Positions 23,754 to 63,878 of a DNA stretch of 64,000 bases are shown one piece after another (position 1 is the stretch's first letter; every line of letters starts with the position of its first letter). The stretch is from Lytechinus pictus (taxonomy: Eukaryota). Both the position numbers and the translations under genes were made by a program. The notes beneath the pieces were generated by a model. That model worked only from the letters and a program-made list of their open reading frames with translations. It ran no database searches and was not told the DNA's origin. The stretch lies in the NCBI RefSeq assembly GCF_037042905.1, contig NC_087251.1:28026001-28090000 (forward strand), given 5' to 3'.

Positions 23754-26700
23754 TCATCTTGTATTTGAAATCCCAGGGTGCACTGGACTATCCTCGGCGT
23801 GATCTCCATCCTTGATCCTATTCCTCAAATCTCCTAGATCATCTTGCAAGTTGTGATTAAGGCCAGCTTGTCTTCTATGATCTTCAATTATCTTGGCTCC
23901 TTTTCTTGCTTCCTCCACATATTTGTCCACTTGTTTGGTGACAAGGCTGATGCGTAACCGTGGTAGCACGTCTTCCAGCATCACAGCAACAAGAGGCGCA
24001 AATTTGACTTTTGGCATATTGTTCATGTTTAACCTCTCCAGATTCCTAGAAAATGTAATTCAAAAATTTGAAGAGTAACAAAAGGAAAAAAAATACATAT
24101 AAAAAAATAATCTATGTACATAGTGTCCTTTTCAAAATGTGAATGACTTGATTGAAACAAAAATTATCTCCTAAAGTAAACAAAACAACAGTAACTTTTA
24201 TGAAGGAAAATCTAACTGACCTCTTAAAATGTGAGATGTCATACTTTCAGTATTTACAAATAGGAACTAGTTTTTATGTCATGTTTGAGAAATCATCCAT
24301 GTTTAAATATGAAAAAAATGGCAGAAACTGAATTTCAATTGATAGGGTTCATTCCATCTACCCTAGCATCAAGTTGGTTTTGATAAAAAAAAATTAATTA
24401 AGGGCTGGTGAAAATCCATCTAAGAATAATTGTTATGAATTGTCAGTTTTTATTTTTATTATGCCACATGTGAGCAGCTGTCTCATGTCATATGTAATAT
24501 AACTTAAATTCCCACTTTAAAATTCATGACTGGAAAATGTTGTTAGAGAATGAATTGTAAATAAAATAATGAGATCAGTCTGTATATTCAATGAAAAGTT
24601 AAAATAATCAATTTTTTGAGAAAGTTTAATTATACAGAATTCGCATCACATGACAGATGGGAAAGATGCTTGAATGTGACATCACAAAATTAAACCTACA
24701 AAATCTACACCCGAGTTGAATATTCTTCGATAGATTTTTACCAAATCTTCATTCACACAGTTCTCTTGTTTTTTATACAGTGGTAAATTCCCCCCCAACC
24801 AATTAATTTTGATGTGAAAACATAAATACGTAAAAAGAAAAATACCTTAGTTTGTGGAGTGTTGCTATCCCATTCTCTGTAACTTGCTCACAATTGTTAA
24901 TATTGAGATGGGTAAGGGTATCTCTTAGATGTACAAGGCTAGCAAGGCAGTGGTCATCTACCATAGCACATCCTTCAAGGCTTAGATATTTTACTGCAGA
25001 TAATTTGACTGTAACACAATCAAAAGGAAATTTTGTTTGCAATGGCATCATTAGCAGTTGTTCAATTGACCTTTGATAAGTGGAATCTACTGAGAATTTG
25101 AAAGCGCTTGACTAAGGAAATGTTTTGTTTTCTGTTGAACAAAATTTGACATAATGGTTTGACGTAATTGTAATTTTGCCATTCAATGGTAACATCAATC
25201 GATTCCCTTACTTTGATTGTATGTTAAGCATAAATACAACTTTTCTGTCCCACTGGATAATTGTTATAAACAGGTTTACTTTATCACAATTCAGTTTTCA
25301 TGGAAAGATTATACATTGTACATGATTGAGATTATCTTGAAACTTTAGTGAGAACACAAATGCAAATGCCTTACCAAGATCGGCCATGCTAAACTGGTCA
25401 AGGTCGGTGTCCATTGCATCAATGGCTATTACAGACTGACCCTCCAGTTCATCAAGTGGTAGTGACCCTCTCTTGATGTCCTGCTTCGTGTACCAATTTC
25501 CATTTGTAAACTGGACTCTGGCTCCCATTTTGATTAGCATATGGCACACACCAACCTCAAGTCCAAACTTTTTTATGGTATCAAATGATTCCCTGGGTGG
25601 ATAAAGCAAAAACTTAAGAATGTTATAAAAAGCCTGCATTGCCCAAAAGCAAAATGTGACATTCCGATCAAAGTACAATTTTAGATCTATCCACATTTTA
25701 ATAGCGATTTGTGATTTTAAATATTCATCATTCTTTTATTCATTGACTGTATCTCAATAACCTTGCACTAAAATGTTATCAAAAATGCTTTCAAACATTT
25801 CTGCTGCCTTCTATAATGGTCAAAGAAATGTTGACGCAGTTTCATTCTCATTTTACTTGGTTTTACTATTTCTAACTTCTGTTACCAGCACCATCACAAA
25901 CACTACTACTTATTAAAAGATGAGGAATCTTACATTTTGACCTGTTCAGACCATGCACGCTGTATTCTCTTCTTTGCGAAGTACCAGATTGACATGTTCC
26001 TGCATTGATCTCTTCTCGTTCCTGTCATCATGGCTAGCTGAAGAATAGCACACCGAGGTGACCTCCATACTACAGCATGCCGTCTGAAGATACAGACACA
26101 GCCATGACCTATTCTGGACTAGGATATAAAAAATTTGTTTCAAAATGAACGTTTGTATTGAACATTGAAAAAATTGTAATAATGTAAGATGACACTCAAA
26201 AACAAACAAGTGTATGCATATTGGGGCTCATGATGGCAGACATGGCAGTGGTTATCTCCCATCACTGCACAATCATCCTTTAATATTGACCATTGATTGA
26301 TGATAGGTTCTCATGTAGCACTTTTGTAGCAAATCGAAATTGAGCAATACTATACGAACCTCTCATTTGAGTGACTGCACTATATATTCTATTCAATATA
26401 TATGTATCAAAATTATCAATTAAAATTTCCACTAATATAATCTAACAGTACTTGAAATAGCTTAATTCTAATGATGTTGATATTTCTATTGACAAATATA
26501 TTACCAATATTCATCTGTACAAACAAGATTAATTCATATTTTATTGTAACGTAATCACAAATATAATTAAAGACTTCTTGACTTCTAACATTAAGCTTTT
26601 TACAGGTAAATTTGTCATATTCACAAAGTAATGATTAAAACATGGAAAATTATGGTTACTTTTTTATTTTGTTTTGTTGGTTATTCTGCTGGATTACGCC

Positions 26701-27236
26701 TTGCTTCACTACCAAGCTGTTCACTACACCTCCATAGACTGAAATCATTCTTCCACACTGTATGTAGACCCATACCCCAAACTTAATTCTTAATATTTTC
26801 TGTTGCCAGTGACTCAGTCAGTGAAGGCGTCACCGTCAGTCAGTGAGTGATTTTTCATCTAAATTAATCTGGTAATCATATCCTGGTAAATGATCCAACA
26901 CCCTTTTATATATTTAATTTACCTTGGACGTACATGAAATGGCTATATTTAACAACTCTCAGTTAGATCTAACATAGTCTTACTGAGAGCAATCCAATTG
27001 ATTCATCCAGACCATTCACAATTATTAATCGAGAACGAATTTCATCTGAAGTCAAATAACACCAAAAACTATATGTGGGGCAACTGACCCGCAACGGGCA
27101 CAAGTAGCAGAAGTCATCATAGACAGTTAGAAATCTTAGAATACCTACTCGTCTACGATACAATCATTTCTAGTTGTAAAACCAAAATAGTAACCTGCTC
27201 ACCAAAGTTTCAAGTGTATTCACTTACCATATTCAT
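23754..27236 (-). CDS. DMAC2: Distal membrane-arm assembly complex protein 2 / ATP5SL-like (ATP5S factor B family LRR protein), 5 coding exons, ~288 aa
   Basis: complement join(27228..27236,25934..26118,25375..25592,24846..25008,23754..24045); 867 nt, phases consistent. Arg-rich N-terminus (presequence-like), then LIKMGARVQF..IAIDAMDT..LSLEGCAMVDDHCLASL..LNINNCEQVTENGIATLHKLRNLERLNMNNMPKV..MLEDVLP. This matches the DMAC2/ATP5S family, with a C-terminus closer to DMAC2. The first micro-exon is less certain. Confidence 0.78.
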
Positions 27237-27344
27237 AATTTGCGTTGACTTTTATGGCGTTACTTTCCTCCTTTTCTCTGAAAACATGCACCATACGAGG
27301 TACGGTATCGTTAAATCGTCAAATGACAAATGAAAACACCGCCG

Positions 27345-29344
27345 CACAGTGGGCCAGAATGAACCCAAAGTGCGCCAAAACCCATTATTCACACATTTGT
27401 ACGATTAAATTTTGTAGATAGGGGTAATTTCACCCGTAGAATTCAATAAAAGTATTTTCAAATATTGATGACGTCGTTAAAATACTGTTTTCTGATTGGC
27501 TGTTAACATTTGAGAAGAAAGTACATGTTTCTAATTCTACAATAAGTTTCAAATTTTCAGAAACTAGTTTTAGAGAAATTTCAGCAATAATTAAGCATAA
27601 TATTAGCAAACAGCAAACACACAAACAGGCAAACAAACAAGAAAAGTCTGTGCTCGGGGTACAAATAATTCAAATGGTGACTCGAGTATCGCTTAAAGAG
27701 GGCGCCCTACCAAGATTCCGGAATTGTAAAATTCAAAGTGAAATTGTAAAAAAAAGTATTTTCATTCCCTGGGTACAATGATTATCCACACCTACATGAA
27801 TTAAAATGGATTGATACCAGAAGTGGACAGTGAAATCTTAAAAATAATTATTCTAGTGATAAATGATAGAAGCCGGGTCCTCTGCAGGTTAATCAGTACA
27901 AGGCCCTACAAGGCCTACCTATTTCACAAAGAACGGCGTATACAAAGTTATTCCGAATCAGAGTCTCTCTCTACTATCTCACCAACTATTATGTCTTTGG
28001 TGAGAGGATCTTTTACTATATTTTGAACATCAGGGGGAAGAGGCTGTGATTGTTGTACTCTTAAAAATTTGCTACTAATCACAATGTCACCTGTTACCAT
28101 TAGTCTGTGGAATACATATAAAGTCAATGAGAGTCATAAACCAAACAATCCTTGAATTTTGAAATGATAATATACACTTCCTTCTTGATCGATACTAACA
28201 ATTATAGCAAATTTGAAATGAGCCAAGAGCCAATTCATACGTGTATGTGAAGTTACAAACCCTCTTGGGGGGATAAATACTAATAATGATAATGCAACTT
28301 AGGCATGTAATAGAGCCCACGTATATCCCATCTCTGTCCACACATACATTTTCATATTTTGTCAGAAAACTGCGTGAGACCTATCACATCCCTAGTCATG
28401 TGTGTTATAGTGATATACAGTAGCCCCTACTTGGTTTATGAACAACAAAACAAATATATAATCTTACTCGGGAATCTTATCTTAAGAATTAATCTTCTCA
28501 GGATGACAGCATATCAGATATGGGACACGGGATGGAACAGTTTGGCATCAAAATGAAGTTGTGTTACATGTATTATTATATAGTTAGTGGAATTGGAAAT
28601 GAAAGCTTGCCTTTACGTATGTTTAACGAAAATATTTTAAAGGCAGACACCAGTCACAAGAGCCAGACACTTGAGCCAGACACCCCCCCCCCCCTCTCTC
28701 TCTCTCTCTCTCCCAGCACGCGGCGGGGAGTTTCAATGTCACCCGCAACGTTCGGCACGCGCATAATGGGACACTAACTTGGAACGATTTTTGTGATAAA
28801 TACGGCGAACATGTGGTTGGAAAATTGGTTATATCTCCAGAAAATGCACGTATATGCAGCTAAATTTGGTATCAGTGTAAAGCATGAACTATAAAAAAGA
28901 CCGTCATGGTATTTACAGCGCAGCAATCGGCAGCAATTTGTAAAAGATATGCTCATGAAAAAAAAAATTGCTAAAACCCTCCATTGTCAAATGGTTTCGT
29001 CCAAAATTGCCTCTGAAGGGATTATCATTTTATCTTGAAAATATTTCATCACTTAAAACAATCATTCATCAAAGAGCACCGTGAATAAGAAATAAATTAA
29101 GCAATGCGTTTTGTTAAAACAGTGAAATATCTAAAACGTGTCAGTTACACATGCGGTAGCCGTATAGAGTCATTTTCCGGTAATATTGAATAAAAATGGG
29201 CAACTCATAATCAATTTAATGGAGAACTATTGTATGGAGGCATTCTACAGGTTCTTATCTTTGCTTAGAACATGAAAAAAACAAAATTTGTTTCATGACC
29301 AAAAACCAGTTTTGGCGCACTTTTGCTCTCTCCTGGCCCATGTG
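27345..29344. mobile_element. Non-autonomous Transib-type transposon with RSS-like TIRs
   Basis: Left end CACAGTGGGCCAGAATGAACCCAAAGTGCGCCAAAAC; right end (revcomp) CACA-TGGGCCAGGAGAGAGCAAAAGTGCGCCAAAAC; perfect 5-bp GC-rich TSD CGCCG (27340-27344, 29345-29349); no long ORF. Confidence 0.82.
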
Positions 29345-29414
29345 CGCCGCCGCCCCCCTACCATATGCAATTCCCCCCCCCCCCCCGTGTTCCTGGGTGG
29401 CAAGGGCCCCTCTA

Positions 29415-29604
29415 CAGGGGCGGATCCAGGATTTTCCAAAGGGGAGGGGGCATTTTTTTCGATGAAAATTTGACAAGGAAATAACAATTCCTCACTTTGA
29501 AGGGGGCACACTTGGGTAAATTTACATTACAAATTTTGATTATGGCTCTCAAGGGGGGGGGGGGTACGGGTCGGCTGTGCCCCCCCCCCCTGGATCCGCC
29601 AGTG
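29415..29604. mobile_element. hAT-like MITE related to 5508-5784
   Basis: CAGGGGCGGATCCAGGATTTTCCAAA / CCTGGATCCGCCAGTG; no clear TSD. Confidence 0.65.
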
Positions 29605-29769
29605 CCCGAGTCCACATTGAGCCAAGCCCATGCAAAGAACCGAGCTCAGTGGCCTACGTGTCCACTGAGGAGAATTGGGTGGGGAACATGGCATGCCCCA
29701 TGTGCGGCTGCAAAAAAAAAAAAGGGGGGGGGGGGGGGGGGGGAGGTCGACAGAATCAGAACTTGCAGA

Positions 29770-30368
29770 AAGGACCGATAGTAAAAAACAACAACAAAAA
29801 GTTGATTTGAATAATAACTTGAGAGAAAATCCAACGAGCATAGCACCGAAAATTTCATCAAAATCGGATGTAAAATAAGAAAGTTATGACATTTTTAAGT
29901 TTCGCTTAATTTCACAAAACAGTTATATGCACATCGGTATGTAAATGAGGGGACTGATTACATCACTCACTCACTATATCTTTTGTATTTTATTATATGA
30001 AATATGAATTATTCTATATTTTCCTCATTGTCCTGTTTATTCCTCCCTGAACGTGTAGTAGTACCATTGATATAACATCTCATGGTGCAGTTATGTTTGT
30101 CCTTAATAATGTCAAATTGGTAACAATTGAAATATTGTACAATTCAAACAACAAAAGAAATAGTGAATGATGGACATCATCGACTCTCTCATGTGCATGT
30201 CACTTAGCTGTGCATACAACTGTTTTGTGAAAAATAAGCGAAACTTTGAAATGTCATAACTTTCTTATTTTACATCCGATTTCGATGAAATTTTCAGCAT
30301 TATATGCTTGTTTGATTTTTCTTTATGGATTCAAATCAACATTTTTCTGGGGTGGACTTGACCTTTAA
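29770..30368. mobile_element. Kolobok-like fold-back MITE, left end damaged
   Basis: Long IRs gaaaatttcatcaaaatcggatgtaaaataagaaagttatgacattt / aaatgtcataactttcttattttacatccgatttcgatgaaattttc; right end ggggtggacttgacctTTAA. A degenerate relative lies at ~30930-31460. Confidence 0.7.
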
Positions 30369-31936
30369 GAAGGTAACTACTTGGCCGGAGCACTGTTTTG
30401 AATTCCTCCCTACACGCCCGGGCCTATGCAACCATATTATGAACTTCTCTGATCTTGATATGTTCACAACTTTATCATGTTTATGTATTATTATTGTATC
30501 TAGATGTCTAGGCCTATAGTATAAAAATAAGGGAGTTGAAATTGTATGTAGCCTTCAAATATTCATTAAGTTATTGTTAGTAATAAAAATCACTCTCTGT
30601 ACTCAGGAAATAGACGAATTGACTCCGATGATTCCATAATTAAAGTAAGGAAAATTAATTAGAATAGAGGCCCTATACGAGGTGAGCATATTGATGAGAT
30701 AGTATATTTTCTAATTTGCAATTGGTGCCAAAATATTTTATGATATTTTTTTCGACTTGAGATACGTTTTCCAAGTGAGCCTTCACTCGGGCTTTTCATA
30801 AAATATCTAGTTTATTGGACCCCATTAAAATACTTATCACCTGGCAAGGAGGCAAGCACAAACCTCATTACTGAAAAAAAAACATCCCAATTTAGTTAGT
30901 GAATTAATTTGCCTTTTTGGGGCACTTTTTAAACTTTTCCCCAACTTAAATTCACAAAGCAAAATGCTAAATGATTTCATCAAAATCTTTAAAAAAACAA
31001 GTTATTAAATTTTCAACTTTAGCAATATTTTGTAAAAACGGATGTGCACTTCTTCATTAATATTTATTAGGTGGGCTGATGATGTCACATCCCCACCTTT
31101 TCCTTTTTCTTTATATTACGTGAATTCATATCCATTTCATTGTTTCGTACAGTTTGAATGATACGTCTTCCTTCTGATGAAATAAGCTGCAGCATATTGA
31201 ATATCGAATGCATTAAATCAGTTGTCACTTGTCAATCCAACTTTTTTAGATCTTGGGGGACAAAATTTTGGGGGAAAATAATTCATATAATAAAATACAA
31301 AAGAAGGGGGAGATAATGACATCGTCATGCATGAGACATGCACAGATCACATTTCACCGAGAAAGCAAATTTTTAAATGTCATAACTTTGTAATTTTTGG
31401 TCCGATTTAGATCAAATTGTCAGTGTTATGTTTGTCTAACTTTTCTTTATATGTTCACATCATATTATTGTTAGCCTGAAGTAGGCCAGACCAACCACTT
31501 TAATAAAGGACCCGCCTGCCTGCATGGAGCTTTTAAAGGCCCTGTCATTTCCCATTCCCTTCTTCGTAAATAATCCTCTTTTTGGTACTGGGGATGGGTG
31601 ATGGTGGTGGTGGTAATGGTGTTGGTGCCGTGGTAGGGGGGCACTGGAACTGGTAGCATCCACCCCCCCCCCCCCCGTAGACTAGCGCTAGCATAGCAGC
31701 GCAGCGCAGCGAGCACCGGTCACCCGGTTAATTGGGGCTGAGGTTGCGTTTGAGAAGTTCCCGAACTCCGAAGCGCCATTGTTGAATTTGATGTGAACTT
31801 ACGAGGCGTGTTTTTGTTCATAACTTCATGTTTATGTATTTACTTGATCTCGTTTTCATCTTCATTATGTGTTAAATCGACTTAGTATCTTTGTCTTCCA
31901 AGTTTTTCTTTGAAAATGGTGGGATAGTTGGTGACG

Positions 31937-34900
31937 ATGAACAGGAAAACGAGTGCGACCACTGCAGGCTGCAAGAGCAGCAAGCAAACAACTTTATTTC
32001 AGAACTGGAGTACGGATCAAAATGTCAGAGAAAATGAAGGATTGCCGTCAAAAACAAGTAAATTTACAATAATTCCGTGTATTATAAATCATTAAATTGA
32101 ATCGCATTAATGAAAAATTGTTTTATTCCTTCAAATTTTAGAAATTTGTGTTATGGTAATGGTATAGATAAACTGGCCCAAGCCAGCAAGGAAAACACCA
32201 ACAATGACAGTCACTACTACTACGGTACGGCTCGTTCTCCCCACGCCGCGCCTCCCGGGGGCAGTTCGCTCTAGCGTCAGAGGGTTGGTGGCCGCTGGTC
32301 GACGGCTGTCTCATCAGTGACAGTGTTTCTATTTCTATTTCTACCTCTCCGAAATTCGGGGAAATTTTGACTTTTTCCAGGAAAGGCCCTATAATAAGAG
32401 AGATGAAGGTTGGCTCTCGAGCTCTCATGGTTTCTCTTGCCAACAACTTGTTGAACAAGGTTAAATATGTGGAACGCCTAAGACTTATGCCTGGCATCGG
32501 CAAGTTCCCCCAAAAGTCTGCGCTAGCCAGGAGGCTTCTAACAGTTAGAGAGTACAAATCATTTACTAACGTATGCTTACTCTCCTCGAAGCCAGGAATT
32601 CCTTCTCATTCATCTGCGTGTACCGCCAAAAAACCTGAAACTTTCGCCCCCGAGATTTGTACTTTCCTTCTAAAAGATCTAGCCCTAAATCATGTAAATG
32701 GGATACAACTTCATTTCCGACATTTCTACGCTATCAATTTCATTTTTAAACAAGAATTCATTAAAAAAATGAAAAAAATATTATGAAAAGACGGGGGAGA
32801 CTTGCCCGATGTTAACGCCACCATCTTGTGTCCTATTGTTCTTCCCCAACGTTACAGACGCACGCGTCCGTAACTATGTCATTCTTAGACAGCTGGCAGC
32901 CGTCTGTTTCGAGGAGTTTATAAACATTTTTTTATTTTTTACATTTCTCCTCATACACAGACGGCTCACTATCGTGCAGCCACCATTAGGGGACTTACAA
33001 TGCAAATTCCCCCCGTCGGGGCTCTTCAATTTTTGTCTTTAATAAATCAAACTTTTGAAAATTAATGCGACCGAAATGCAAATTAATATTCCCTCTTGGC
33101 ATTAATTGCCAAAAAATGGGGAAAATCAAGTTAAAAGGAACAAAAACAGTGACTTACCTCTGCTGTCGCGCAACTTCACTGCCCTGTTTTATCCGAACTT
33201 AATACACATAAACATATGGCCATTGAGTCCCCTGTACAGATCGCGCTAGAACTTCGGTCTCTGTATTTGGTGAGTGAAGCCAACGGAGTTCAGCTGAACA
33301 ACCAACATAACAGAGACCAAAGCTTTTGGTCTATGTCATTCTAAGCCAAATGAAGAAATGCAAACCAGGTAGAGTTCTACATGTATGGTAGTGGATCGTA
33401 TTACCGAACACTTATCATGAATTCAATCATATCAAACACATTTTGTTCATAAAATTCACCAAACTTTGAACATAAATACACAATTACCTACAAAATATAA
33501 ATATGTAAAAATTTTGCCGAAATCGTTTTTCCTTTTTACGATATTAGCTTCTAATCGGACCCCTCTTTGCACGTGAAATATTTTGGTCACTTGAAAAAGG
33601 TATCGTATTACCGAACGTGTGTTTTCTATGGGAAAAGTTGAGAAAACAACAAAAACACTTACCGGTATGAGCTATTTTGACCATATTTTACCTATATAGA
33701 ATATTAAGACTTTGAAAATGTATTTTTGACAATTTTTCATCAATTTCTATTCAAGTTCTCTTTGGAAGGATGTTGCAAAATTTTGAGCGTATGAATTTAT
33801 TTTCTGATGCGTATGATGCGTGCGTTCGGTAATACAAGGCCGGTCGGTAATACAATCACTCACTATATATCTAGCCCCCCCCCCCTAAGGTGGCATTATA
33901 TTTGTGTAAAGTTCATTCATTTTAGTCAGCAGGGCAGTACTCTGCCATTTTTTATGGCTAGTGGTGGTTCATGCTAAAGCATGTCTCTAAATTGGACTGG
34001 GACAGACAACTGTTCAACTTCATGGACTTTCTAAGTTTGACCAGTACCAGAAAAAAAGGATAGTTGGATTCCTGTAAAATTCATTTCTTGATTGTTATTA
34101 CAACTGGAAATGGATAACAATATTTGATTAGCTTGTTGATAACATTGGGTGATTTCAAGTACGGTGTTAAAATCTGGTGTTGGTGTTGTCACAACACCAA
34201 CACCAGCCACAAGACCGTACTTGAAATCAGGCTGGTGTTGGGATTGACCTCGGAAAATATGACGTATTTCCGGCAGTTCGTCTTGAATGCTGGTGTTGAA
34301 TGTCGTCTGCTGAACCCCGCACTGCGGCTGGTGTTGACGATCTACGTGCAATTTCCCCATTCACCAACACCAACCCCCAGGGATTGGGAAAATCATGATT
34401 TCAAGTTTGGTGTTGGTGTTGGTGTTGGCAATCTCAAGCTCGTGAACAGGAGGCGAACACGATGAAACATCCCCGTAAAATTAGCTTTTACAGTTAAGAT
34501 GAGTACAAATCATTTGAGCTGTATATATTTTGATGAAGAATAATGTTCACTCTTTCGAATTCTTGAATTAATTAAAACATTGGTATTCTGTACGATGAGA
34601 ATTTAATGCATTTCTCTCCATTTCATTTTCGTCGTCGAGACTTCTCGCGTGAAGTTGAGATTATTTAGCAGCGCAGCACAGAGGCGTGACGTCATGTGCT
34701 ATCGATAACGCAATCGGTATCATTCCTCTGAACCCAGCTCGGTGTTGGAGCTCGGTTCAGCTGCCTTTTTACGCTCTCAACACCAACACCGAACACCGAA
34801 CTTGAAATCACCCATTGACTACAATGTATTCACCATGATGAAGAATAGAGATTCAATCATTCAATGATTACCCTTTGCTTTTTCTAGATCAACAAAATGA

Positions 34901-52900: not shown

Positions 52901-55900
52901 TATGGACCTAGTTCATGAAACTTGGGCATAAGGTTAATCAAGTATTAGTGAACATCCTGCTCGAGTTTCAGGTCACGTGACCAAGGTCAAAGGTCATTTA
53001 TGGTCAATGAACTTTGGTTAAGTTGGGGGCATTTGTTGAATTACTATCATAACTTTGAAAATTTATGGATCTAGTCCATGAAACTTGGACATAAGGTTAA
53101 TCAAGTATTAGTGAACATCCTGCCTGAGTTTCAGGTCACATGACTAAGGTCAAAGGTCATTTAGGGTCAATGAACTTTGGCCAAGTTGGGGGTATTTGTT
53201 GAATTACCATCATAACTTTGAAAATTTATGGATTTAGTTCATGAAACTTGGACATTAGGTTAATCAAGTACCACTGAATATCCTGTGTGAGTTTCAGGTC
53301 ACATGACCATGGTCAATGGTCATTTAAGGTCAATGAACTTTGGCCGTGTTGGGCGTATATGTTAAATTACCATCCTAACTCTGAAAGTTTATGGATCTAG
53401 TTCATAAAACTTGGACATAAGAGTAATCAAGTATCACTGAACATCCTGTACGAGTTTCAGGTCACATGACCATGGTCAAAGGTCATTAAAGGTAAATGAA
53501 CTTTGGCCGTGTTGGGGGTATTTGTTGAATTACCATCCTAACTCTGAAAGTTTATGGATCTAGTTCATAAAACTTGGGATATAAGAGTAATCAAGCTTCA
53601 CTGAACATCCCCTGTGAGTTTCAGGTCACAAAACCAAGTCAAAGGTCAGTTAAGGTCAATAAACTTAGGCCATGTTGGGGTAATTGTTGAAGTGCCATCA
53701 TAACTTTGAAAGTTTATGGATAGAGAATGAATGAAATGTGGACATGGGTGTAGTTGACAAGTCTTAAGTCACCGTTCAAATGTCATCTATGGTCAATGAA
53801 CGTGGTATTATATCATTATATGAATGGTGTTTTTGTGAATGATTATTTTATAGTAGTTTTCAAAGTTAGCACTGCTGCTATGTTAAATTGCGTAATGCAG
53901 GCGAGACTGCCAGAGGCGTTCCACTTGTATAATCTTATAAATGATATCAAATATGCATTGTGTAATATTGGGAGTTGGGAAAAATTAATGGCCAAACTCA
54001 GATTTCCAAACTGTTTTTGCTCGTTTTGCAGCTTTTCAATTCAGACCTCATCCAACACTTTTGAATCCTGCTCTTTTCGTGATGGCATGATCATAACAAG
54101 CATGGTATCATTTTAAAGAGAATCAAATGATCTTTTCAATGATGTAAAATATGCGTTGTGTAAAATTGGGAGTTGGGAGAAATTAATGGCCAAACTCAGA
54201 TTTCCAAACTTTTTTTGAGGGGTTTATATTGGAGATGCTAATGAATTCAATTTAATCAAATTCAATTAAAGATTGTTAATTTCAAACTGATCATAATTTC
54301 AAACATGAAGAAATAAGTTGAAATGCATATTAAGTCTATAAATATACCGGTAAGTATTATTCATGATTTCTCCAGTTAGAGATATTCATGTCTAATCTCT
54401 GTAAATTTCATTTTAGATCCCATGAAGCAGGGCAAGTTGGTAAAGAATATTGAAAGAGAACAGAGGAGAGATGATATTCTACTCAAGCACAGACTCGAAA
54501 AGAAAGAAAAGAGAAATAAGCACAAGAAGGTAGATATTAACAACTGTTTTTTCTGTGTAAATTAATTAAAATATAATATCTCTGTCAAAAGTATGAAAGT
54601 CTAAACAAGAAACATTTACAGTGTATGTATATCTGTACTACATGTATATACAGAATAATTGTTGAAAAATTGAAAAGGTGGACAGTACAACGTTATAACA
54701 GCAAAATTTGATTTATTTGTGGTGATAGGCATAGGGATCATATATTGACATGTCATCATTATTTGCATAATAGATCAGTAGAAATAAAAGAAGCTTGAAT
54801 AAGTGCAACAATAAATCAAATACATTACACAGTGGCATGCAATCAAAAGTAGTGTATACAAAAAATATCAGTTATAAAATATACAAGACACGAAACAAAG
54901 TAGCAATTTGAAAATATCGTTATTTTGAAAACATTGAAACATAAATATAGGAACAATCTGAGATTTCATGAAAAGAATTTCCTGCAATCTATTAAATGGT
55001 TTTGTTTAATAGTGAAAGAATATGAGACAGAATTACACCAATTACCTAATTTTCTTAATTGTGTAAAATTTGATATCCAACACAATTATAATATGAGTGA
55101 CACAAGATGTTCAATGTTAAGAGAGTGAATATAGCACAGTTTTGGCATTGTGAATCTGATTATTACCTATTTGCAGTCATTGAATCACCGTCGTAAAGCG
55201 GCACATTTCCTTGACGAGGAAGCAGAGGTTTCGGAGGATGAAGAATGGTCATCAGATGAGGAAGGCTCAGACCTTGATAACTCTTTAGAAGGCTTCATCA
55301 ACAATGCATCTCAATCAAGTCAAACAACATGCCCACGAGGTAAGGCATCTGACTTTACATTAGGAAACTTTTCTTTGTCTTGAGATAAACTGTAGCTGAA
55401 TACTTGGTCAGTCTCTAACTCCATTTTAAAGTTAGATGTCTCATTGAGATAAAATGCCAAGAACAGCAAATATTTTGAAGATTTTCATAAAGAAATATCT
55501 GAGATTTTTCCTAAAGAAATTGGAGGAATAGGAGTCAGTCTAGTAGTAGAAGTACTAATCAAGGTTTTTAAATCAGGGGTGTGTTTCACAAAGATTTAAG
55601 TATGACTTGCAACGCATGATCTTATTGATAGATACGCAGTAGTGCGCGTCCTCATGACACGATCTGACCAATGCAGTCAATCCTTTCATACCGTACGCAA
55701 CTCGGTATTTAAGTGCGACTGTAAGTCATACTTAAATCGTTGTGAAACACCCCCCTGGAGATTTACTTCTTCCACACACAGAAATTGACCTTACCCCCAT
55801 CCCTCCACTTCACCCTGTTGAGAGCATCTTCCTCCTTCAGTCCTTCCTTTCTGATTCTATCTGCGTGAAATGAAAAGCTGTTCTCAAAACACGATCAATG

Positions 55901-63004: not shown

Positions 63005-63878
63005 GGCCCAAATTCACAAAGGTGGTTTTAAAAACCCATGGTTGAATCCATGGTTTATGCAGAACAATGACGTGTATTTGACGTGTACATACTCCTGCAT
63101 TATTCTACAAGTACGATGATACACCAACCTGGTGGACTGTACTTAAACGGATGATGATTTGAATCAGAATTTATTTTTATTTGGTTGCCCTGACGCTCAA
63201 TACTCTACTGTAAACCGTTATATTCTTTACGCTAAATATTTTATTTTTTCGACATGTTGTAAGGGTGATCGGTTGTGTTTTAGCTCTTTTAAGATCATAT
63301 TGAAACGCTATTGTGAAATTGAAAGGGTTCTCAGTCAAAACCATCATAATTTTGTGTTATCATTAGATAATAGTACGCATGTACAGTTGTTGTAAACATG
63401 TTCGCTTCATGATTTTTCTGTAAATTGAATTGCTTTCGTGTTTGATTTTGAATAAAATCTCTATAAAAGAAAAAAAAAGATTTCCTGTATAAATTATGCT
63501 TAATTTAGCGCGTATCGGGCGTGTGTATAAAAAAATTCCAATGCTGATGCGCGGTGTATAAAAAAATTCCAATGCTGATGCGCGCTTTTGTCACAGTGCG
63601 CCAAATCGACGCATGTTACCATGGTTAGATACGCTATTTTATTCATGAGTCCATTGTTTGAAGAGTGGACTCATGAATTGAAAACAGTGAACTCATGAAT
63701 AAAATAGCACGGATAACCACGGCAACAGGCTTCAATTTGGCGCACTGTGACAAAAGCGCGCATCAGCTTTGGACATTTTTTATTATACGCGGTAAAATAA
63801 GCTTAATTTATACAGAAAATCTGCATAAACCATGGGCTCAACCGTGGGTTTTCAAAACCACCTTTGTGAATTCGGGCA
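63005..63878. mobile_element. Harbinger-like fold-back MITE containing a LINE insertion
   Basis: TIR GGCCCAAATTCACAAAGGTGGTTTT / AAAACCACCTTTGTGAATTCGGGC; TSD CTA; long IR arms. Confidence 0.8.
63064..63478 (+). mobile_element. 5'-truncated L1/Tx1-type LINE 3' end
   Basis: LFLFG..VNRYILYAKYFIF..F..ILKRYCEIERVLSQN resembles the L1/Tx1 ORF2 C-terminus; AATAAA and a poly(A) tail follow; it splits the left arm of the host MITE. Confidence 0.7.

Follow-up and report, generated by a model that had tools for sequence, protein, structure and literature searches.

The transposase of Transib transposons pairs ends of the RSS23 type, cuts DNA by nick and hairpin, prefers GC-rich targets and leaves a 5-bp duplication. 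The cited part of the 2005 description likewise reports Transib ends that resemble RSS23, yield 5-bp duplications and favour GC-rich targets (Kapitonov and Jurka 2005, PMC1131882). The autonomous Transib1_SP has a length of 4,132 bp, encodes a 676-aa transposase and is flanked by a CGGCG duplication (PMC1131882). Fig. S4g of the same paper prints the ends of Transib-N1_SP, a non-autonomous Transib of Strongylocentrotus purpuratus. Its 11 published copies are about 0.56-0.99 kb long. By hand count, CG[ACG]CG forms the left flank in 10 of the 11, and CGCCG is present on both sides in two of the 11 (PMC1131882).

RAGL, ProtoRAG and TransibSU transposons share CAC-initiated terminal inverted repeats (TIRs) and 5-bp GC-rich duplications. 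RAGL TIRs flank RAG1L-RAG2L, and their positions 8-10, next to the heptamer, form an AAA or A-rich block; in RAGL-A, the two ends show an asymmetry of 10 bp (cited parts of PMC7204232, PMC10629977 and PMC4411706).

The element described here lies upstream of DMAC2 in Lytechinus pictus. It is an ordinary copy and largely known in kind, as a 2005 paper already described RSS-like Transib ends of such a sequence, with such a target motif, from a sea urchin. The RSS likeness is a Transib hallmark in print since then and not a new link. The element tells nothing new on RAG origins. Among the titles listed for Lytechinus together with Transib or with promoters, none dealt with the present Transib family or locus.

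Boundaries and termini

The window is the whole 64-kb stretch of DNA that was analysed. The original prediction had described a 2.0-kb non-coding segment in it, bounded by imperfect TIRs of about 37 bp and a perfect 5-bp duplication and located 109 bp upstream of the DMAC2 start codon. This outline was confirmed. The element spans 27345-29344, exactly 2,000 bp, between two CGCCG copies (Table 1). The TIRs align over 37 bp with 30/37 identical positions (81%) and one gap. The left heptamer is 109 bp from the predicted ATG, which is on the minus strand.

Table 1. Features of the DMAC2 locus and the inserted element (positions in the window).
Feature	Position	Strand	Remark
DMAC2 coding exons 2-5	23754..26118	-	Match to DMAC2-like protein
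DMAC2 first exon, cover of the X1 spliced contig	27228..27372	-	ATG at 27236; X3 covers only 27228-27288
Left target-site duplication CGCCG	27340..27344	+	Target class shared with Transib-N1_SP copies
Left TIR with exact heptamer, spacer of 23 nt and nonamer-like box (7/9)	27345..27381	+	31/36 against Transib-N1_SP end
CRE-like TGACGTC in the element (putative)	27469..27475	+	Motif; 10 matches in the 64-kb window
Putative CCAAT-box-like motif CCAATCA of the element	27493..27499	-	Motif; 18 matches in the 64-kb window
Non-coding interior, multi-copy over full length	27382..29308	.	Longest stop-free frame of 113 codons; no transposase match
Right TIR, heptamer short by one base, CAC kept	29309..29344	-	30/36 against Transib-N1_SP
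Right target-site duplication CGCCG	29345..29349	+	Seen in sequence
GC-box-like GGGGCGG (putative)	29350..29356	-	Now 2 kb from DMAC2; in the empty site next to its leader

Both TIRs have the layout of Transib ends: a CAC start with heptamer, a spacer of about 23 bp and an A-rich box. The 5-bp GC-rich duplication, CGCCG on either side, also agrees with Transib. The left end was correctly described as an exact CACAGTG followed by 23 nt and CCAAAACCC, which matches the nonamer ACAAAAACC at 7/9 positions. For the right end, the heptamer without one base and the box CCAAAACTG at spacer 23 were found as described; the box GCAAAAGTG at spacer 12, which had been called weaker, is its equal with 5/9. 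The left end has a spacer-12 box as well, CCCAAAGTG, with 4/9 matches to the nonamer. Either end thus has a box at each of the two spacer lengths, which leaves no 12/23 asymmetry, and a reading of the ends as a 12/23 RSS pair was discarded.

The left end resembles a vertebrate V(D)J recombination signal in its exact heptamer, in the 23-nt length of its spacer and in a nonamer with 7/9 matches. The element differs from V(D)J signals by the absence of a 12/23 pair, by a right end with 5/9 and a damaged heptamer, by the transposon-wise orientation of its ends and by a spacer conserved between them. The right-end heptamer is intact in two related loci from metagenome contigs (L001 and L002, see below). 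Two contigs of other copies, from runs X1 and X3, cease to align at 29340. The missing base is likely a lesion private to the copy at 27345-29344, judging from these sequences.

Chance controls

The arrangement could in principle have arisen by chance, or from the ends of two unrelated repeats within CCG-rich sequence, and the duplication is located in repeated CCG, where five bases match more easily. In the 64-kb window, 122 CAC...GTG pairs have a perfect 5-bp flanking duplication. The pair of the element scores 23/30 in the TIR, and the runner-up 16/30. The best TIR score in 100 shuffled windows was 20/30, so that the element exceeds all shuffles. Nonamer likeness alone is weak evidence, because a 7/9 match at spacer 23±1 is attained by three of the window's 82 heptamer-like sites; the two others show no sign of an element end. 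The stretch 54828-54866 served as a chance control: its exact heptamer is followed at spacer 23 by a 7/9 nonamer, and nothing marks it as an element end. A chance origin is exceedingly improbable. It is also largely refuted by the contig depth with its step at the left boundary, by the empty site and by a family in print whose ends and targets are the same, all described in the following sections.

Coding capacity

The description as non-coding held (longest stop-free frame in Table 1). No transposase was found in six frames read through stops against Pfam and PDB, a search run without a positive control that short decayed remnants could escape. The same six-frame search detected no RAG1 or RAG2 remnant inside the element. 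Weak Pfam matches to BPP1_LPA (E 0.033) and DUF3654 (E 0.008) were below the cut-off, and PDB matches to antibodies (E 0.36-0.91) were dismissed as chance. The single Rfam match (E 0.52) is outside the element and was also taken as chance. The absence of an own transposase is the state of a non-autonomous Transib.

Copies, empty site and age

Contigs of four of the 24 runs listed (X1, X3, X5 and X15) were mapped on 25250-29715; none of the runs contained half of the sequence words of the locus. X5 is a DNA run of organism B, a relative; X1 and X3 are organism-A runs. In X5, the summed depth had a median of 11,541 in the 12 interior bins, compared to 89 in the 14 flank bins, a ratio of about 130 that is rough and does not represent a copy number. 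The depth rises in a sharp step at the left boundary of the element. Because it is high along the whole interior, a nested insertion as source of the 2-kb length was discarded. A dip at 28528-28825 falls on a skipped simple repeat.

A comparison with orthologous loci, which the original prediction had suggested, revealed the empty site. One X5 contig (depth 54.5) joins 27345 to 29380 and skips the element; it is the one such row among the matches listed, beyond which more empty or filled alleles may exist. Fifteen letters between the two positions match the right flank. Compared to the reconstruction, the contig lacks 14 nt: 5 nt in a CCG/C run and 9 nt in a poly-C run. The indel is clear, though not letter-perfect. 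Run X15 has almost no cover on the unique flanks and is hence silent on the empty site.

Other copies with such ends had also been expected and are present. Among the matches listed, loose ends of X15 contigs at 27339 and 27343 have the flanks CGCCG and CGTCG, and record 25 of X5 provides a third CGNCG flank; these flanks were seen at one side per copy, not as paired duplications. Dispersal over different flanks, as indicated by depth, loose ends and record 25, together with the joint at the empty site, is the pattern of Transib. The element is a real transposon copy of an abundant family.

A scan of metagenome contigs detected two loci with a related right end, at 77-78% identity over 124-138 bp. 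Their flanks are CGGCC and CGACG, and each locus contains one end only. Both are marine-type contigs (L001:50-390 and L002:1-526). In L002 the likeness runs about 520 bp inward, so that different families have kept the subterminal region at the right end conserved. The TIR pattern had no matches in viral contigs.

The element and the X15 contigs differ in 51 of 1,889 bases (2.7%; seven of the eight pieces listed, one duplicate dropped). In a DMAC2 intron, the window and organism B differ in 57 of 921 bases (6.2%). With 2.7% between the copies and 6.2% in the intron, the insertion probably took place at about the time of the divergence from organism B, or later.

Family placement

The 36-bp ends share 31/36 (left) and 30/36 (right) identical bases with Transib-N1_SP by hand count against the printed ends (PMC1131882). 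Further common features are the symmetric RSS23-type ends and the CG[ACG]CG targets, including CGCCG; the present element has no coding capacity. Differences concern five positions among the nine middle TIR bases, the right heptamer, which is short by one base in the present copy, and the size: 2.0 kb and multi-copy over the whole interior, compared to about 0.56-0.99 kb. Because of its length and multi-copy interior, the element would belong to a related, longer family and not to Transib-N1_SP itself. This placement rests on a comparison of ends and target motif, the interior of Transib-N1_SP being unprinted. Transib1_SP belongs to the same superfamily and target class, with its CGGCG duplication. 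It differs by encoding a 676-aa transposase in 4,132 bp, whereas the present element encodes none. Transib1_SP is likely the kind of element that would supply the enzyme to the present family.

The two groups of transposons differ at TIR positions 8-10. The element has GGC, as in Transib ends, in place of the AAA or A-rich block of RAGL. A deletion derivative of a RAGL or TransibSU transposon, a RAG1L-RAG2L remnant with 12/23-type ends, would share the CAC start and the 5-bp GC-rich duplication, and RAG1L-RAG2L loci are present in sea urchins. However, the ends are symmetric save for the loss of one base, neither flanked RAG1L-RAG2L genes nor the 10-bp asymmetry of RAGL-A was seen, the six-frame search detected no RAG1 or RAG2 remnant in the element, and the family that the ends match was published as Transib (PMC1131882, cited part). 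A RAGL derivative is therefore very improbable. The proposal of a non-autonomous family moved by a Transib or RAG-like transposase stood in its first half, owing to the copies, the CGNCG sites, the empty site and the Transib-N1_SP-like ends; the RAG-like half is not favoured, given GGC at positions 8-10. Over all readings together, the identity as a non-autonomous Transib is held with high confidence.

Insertion at the DMAC2 promoter

The probable course of events is that a 2.0-kb gene-less Transib, moved in trans, landed at CGCCG just upstream of DMAC2 and has remained a passenger there. A single-subunit Transib transposase encoded elsewhere likely moves the element by cut-and-paste. It would pair the two symmetric RSS23-type ends, and the excised element would be inserted at a CGCCG target, with duplication of the 5 bp. 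The preference for CGNCG may steer copies into CpG-rich promoter DNA. The observed/expected CpG ratio is 1.15 at 27200-27400, compared to 0.45 in the intron at 26800-27000. In Drosophila, over 20% of the insertions of the Transib Hopper/Kodama were located less than 1 kb from start sites in one strain (bioRxiv 10.64898/2026.08.26.747230, cited part). A promoter-proximal landing is expected because of the CpG-rich site and this Drosophila precedent. Hopper/Kodama is likewise a non-autonomous Transib that is often less than 1 kb from start sites in expanded strains. It differs in lineage and target motif, and the cited part of the preprint describes no promoter function.

Exons 2-5 on the minus strand are 100% identical over their coding parts to a 288-aa NCBI protein, DMAC2-like of Lytechinus pictus. 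The first residues of this protein, MNM, fit the ATG at 27236. For exon 3, a PDB search gave no match.

Run X1 was taken as RNA solely from the GT-AG splicing of its DMAC2 contig. The spliced contig has no differences to the window and a mean depth of 9.62, and it extends across the junction, with 28 nt in the left TIR. The X1 stock may be close to the assembly. Zero depth in three intron stretches (25697-25845, 26144-26441 and 26889-27186) argues against contamination by DNA. The last 31-mer of the contig is the last one before sequence common to CG-flanked copies. Because the following 31-mers are common to these other copies, the stop at 27372 fits an assembly break; under this 31-mer rule, which we infer, the contig likely stopped at the repeat and the RNA may extend further. 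In X3, from another study, the DMAC2 contig comprises 61 nt before exon 2 and ends at 27288, about 57 nt outside the element. The bin depth agrees with this end (4.79 predicted, 4.78 seen). The contig represents another haplotype, with four differences in exon 3, possibly one without the insertion.

The X1 contig entering the TIR is at odds with a mere passenger, as is the separation of a GC-box-like motif from the leader by the insertion. These observations bear on a second reading, in which the same Transib copy now supplies the proximal promoter and start of DMAC2, and insertion-bearing alleles start inside the element. It draws on the spliced X1 contig, with its probable assembly stop and RNA that may run on, on the zero intron depth and on the shorter X3 contig from a haplotype possibly free of the insertion. 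Sequence motifs fit as well: CCAATCA at 27499 and TGACGTC at 27469 face DMAC2, and GGGGCGG has been pushed to 29356. We take the three to be CCAAT-box-, CRE- and GC-box-like, respectively. A sigma-70 promoter scan was set aside as inapplicable to an animal promoter.

Several findings speak against a captured promoter, which is rather unlikely. The X3 contig ends outside the element. The CRE-like and CCAAT-like motifs are short, with 10 and 18 matches in the window. For X1 there is one contig, of mean depth 9.6; contigs, one per case and unstranded, cannot show transcript start, strand or level. Contigs cover the family along its length in both organism-A runs, X1 and X3, so that read-through is possible. 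Longer leaders also gain upstream ATGs, which are predicted to lower translation. On the minus strand, two are found just 5' of the shorter leader, at 27287, with a frame of 11 codons, and at 27294, with one of 79 codons that overlaps DMAC2 out of frame. Still longer leaders include ATGs at 27385 and 27396. With the element as a passenger, DMAC2 would start mostly in its own flank near 27290, and some transcripts would start further upstream, in or through the element.

The added value of the locus is local: the insertion is young and sits at a housekeeping promoter, a relative has the empty allele, and a spliced transcript spans the junction. These features make DMAC2 an easy case, in a tractable sea urchin, for asking if Transib ends can serve as promoters directed outwards. 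There is a modest chance that DMAC2, a nuclear gene whose protein is mitochondrial, had its proximal promoter replaced by a recent Transib insertion, and that an outward CCAAT/CRE end starts the DMAC2 mRNA. If true, insertion-bearing alleles would have an RSS-like heptamer and part of the spacer in their 5' UTR, and upstream ORFs would tune translation.

Neighbouring repeats

A helicase gene (Pfam ResIII/DEAD), presumably FANCM-like, is arranged head-to-head with DMAC2 and starts about 7.6 kb away. The sequence between the two genes (27236-34900, ~7.6 kb) contains several repeats. A very high-copy GC-rich short repeat is located at 29415-29604, with at least 226 and at least 73 loose ends at its boundaries in X5; it is also present in X1 and X3. 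At 32138-32786, stop-free frames of 155 and 192 codons overlap on opposite strands and have no Pfam match. A MITE-like element at 29848-30295 has 65-nt arms that are 94% complementary. Near the end of the window, a fold-back element (63478-63822) consists of a 79% palindrome (63558-63783) and outer 38-bp arms at 89%. Both arms carry CACAGTGCGCCAAAT, which is internal and without a 5-bp duplication and has GTGCGCCAAA in common with the Transib TIR.
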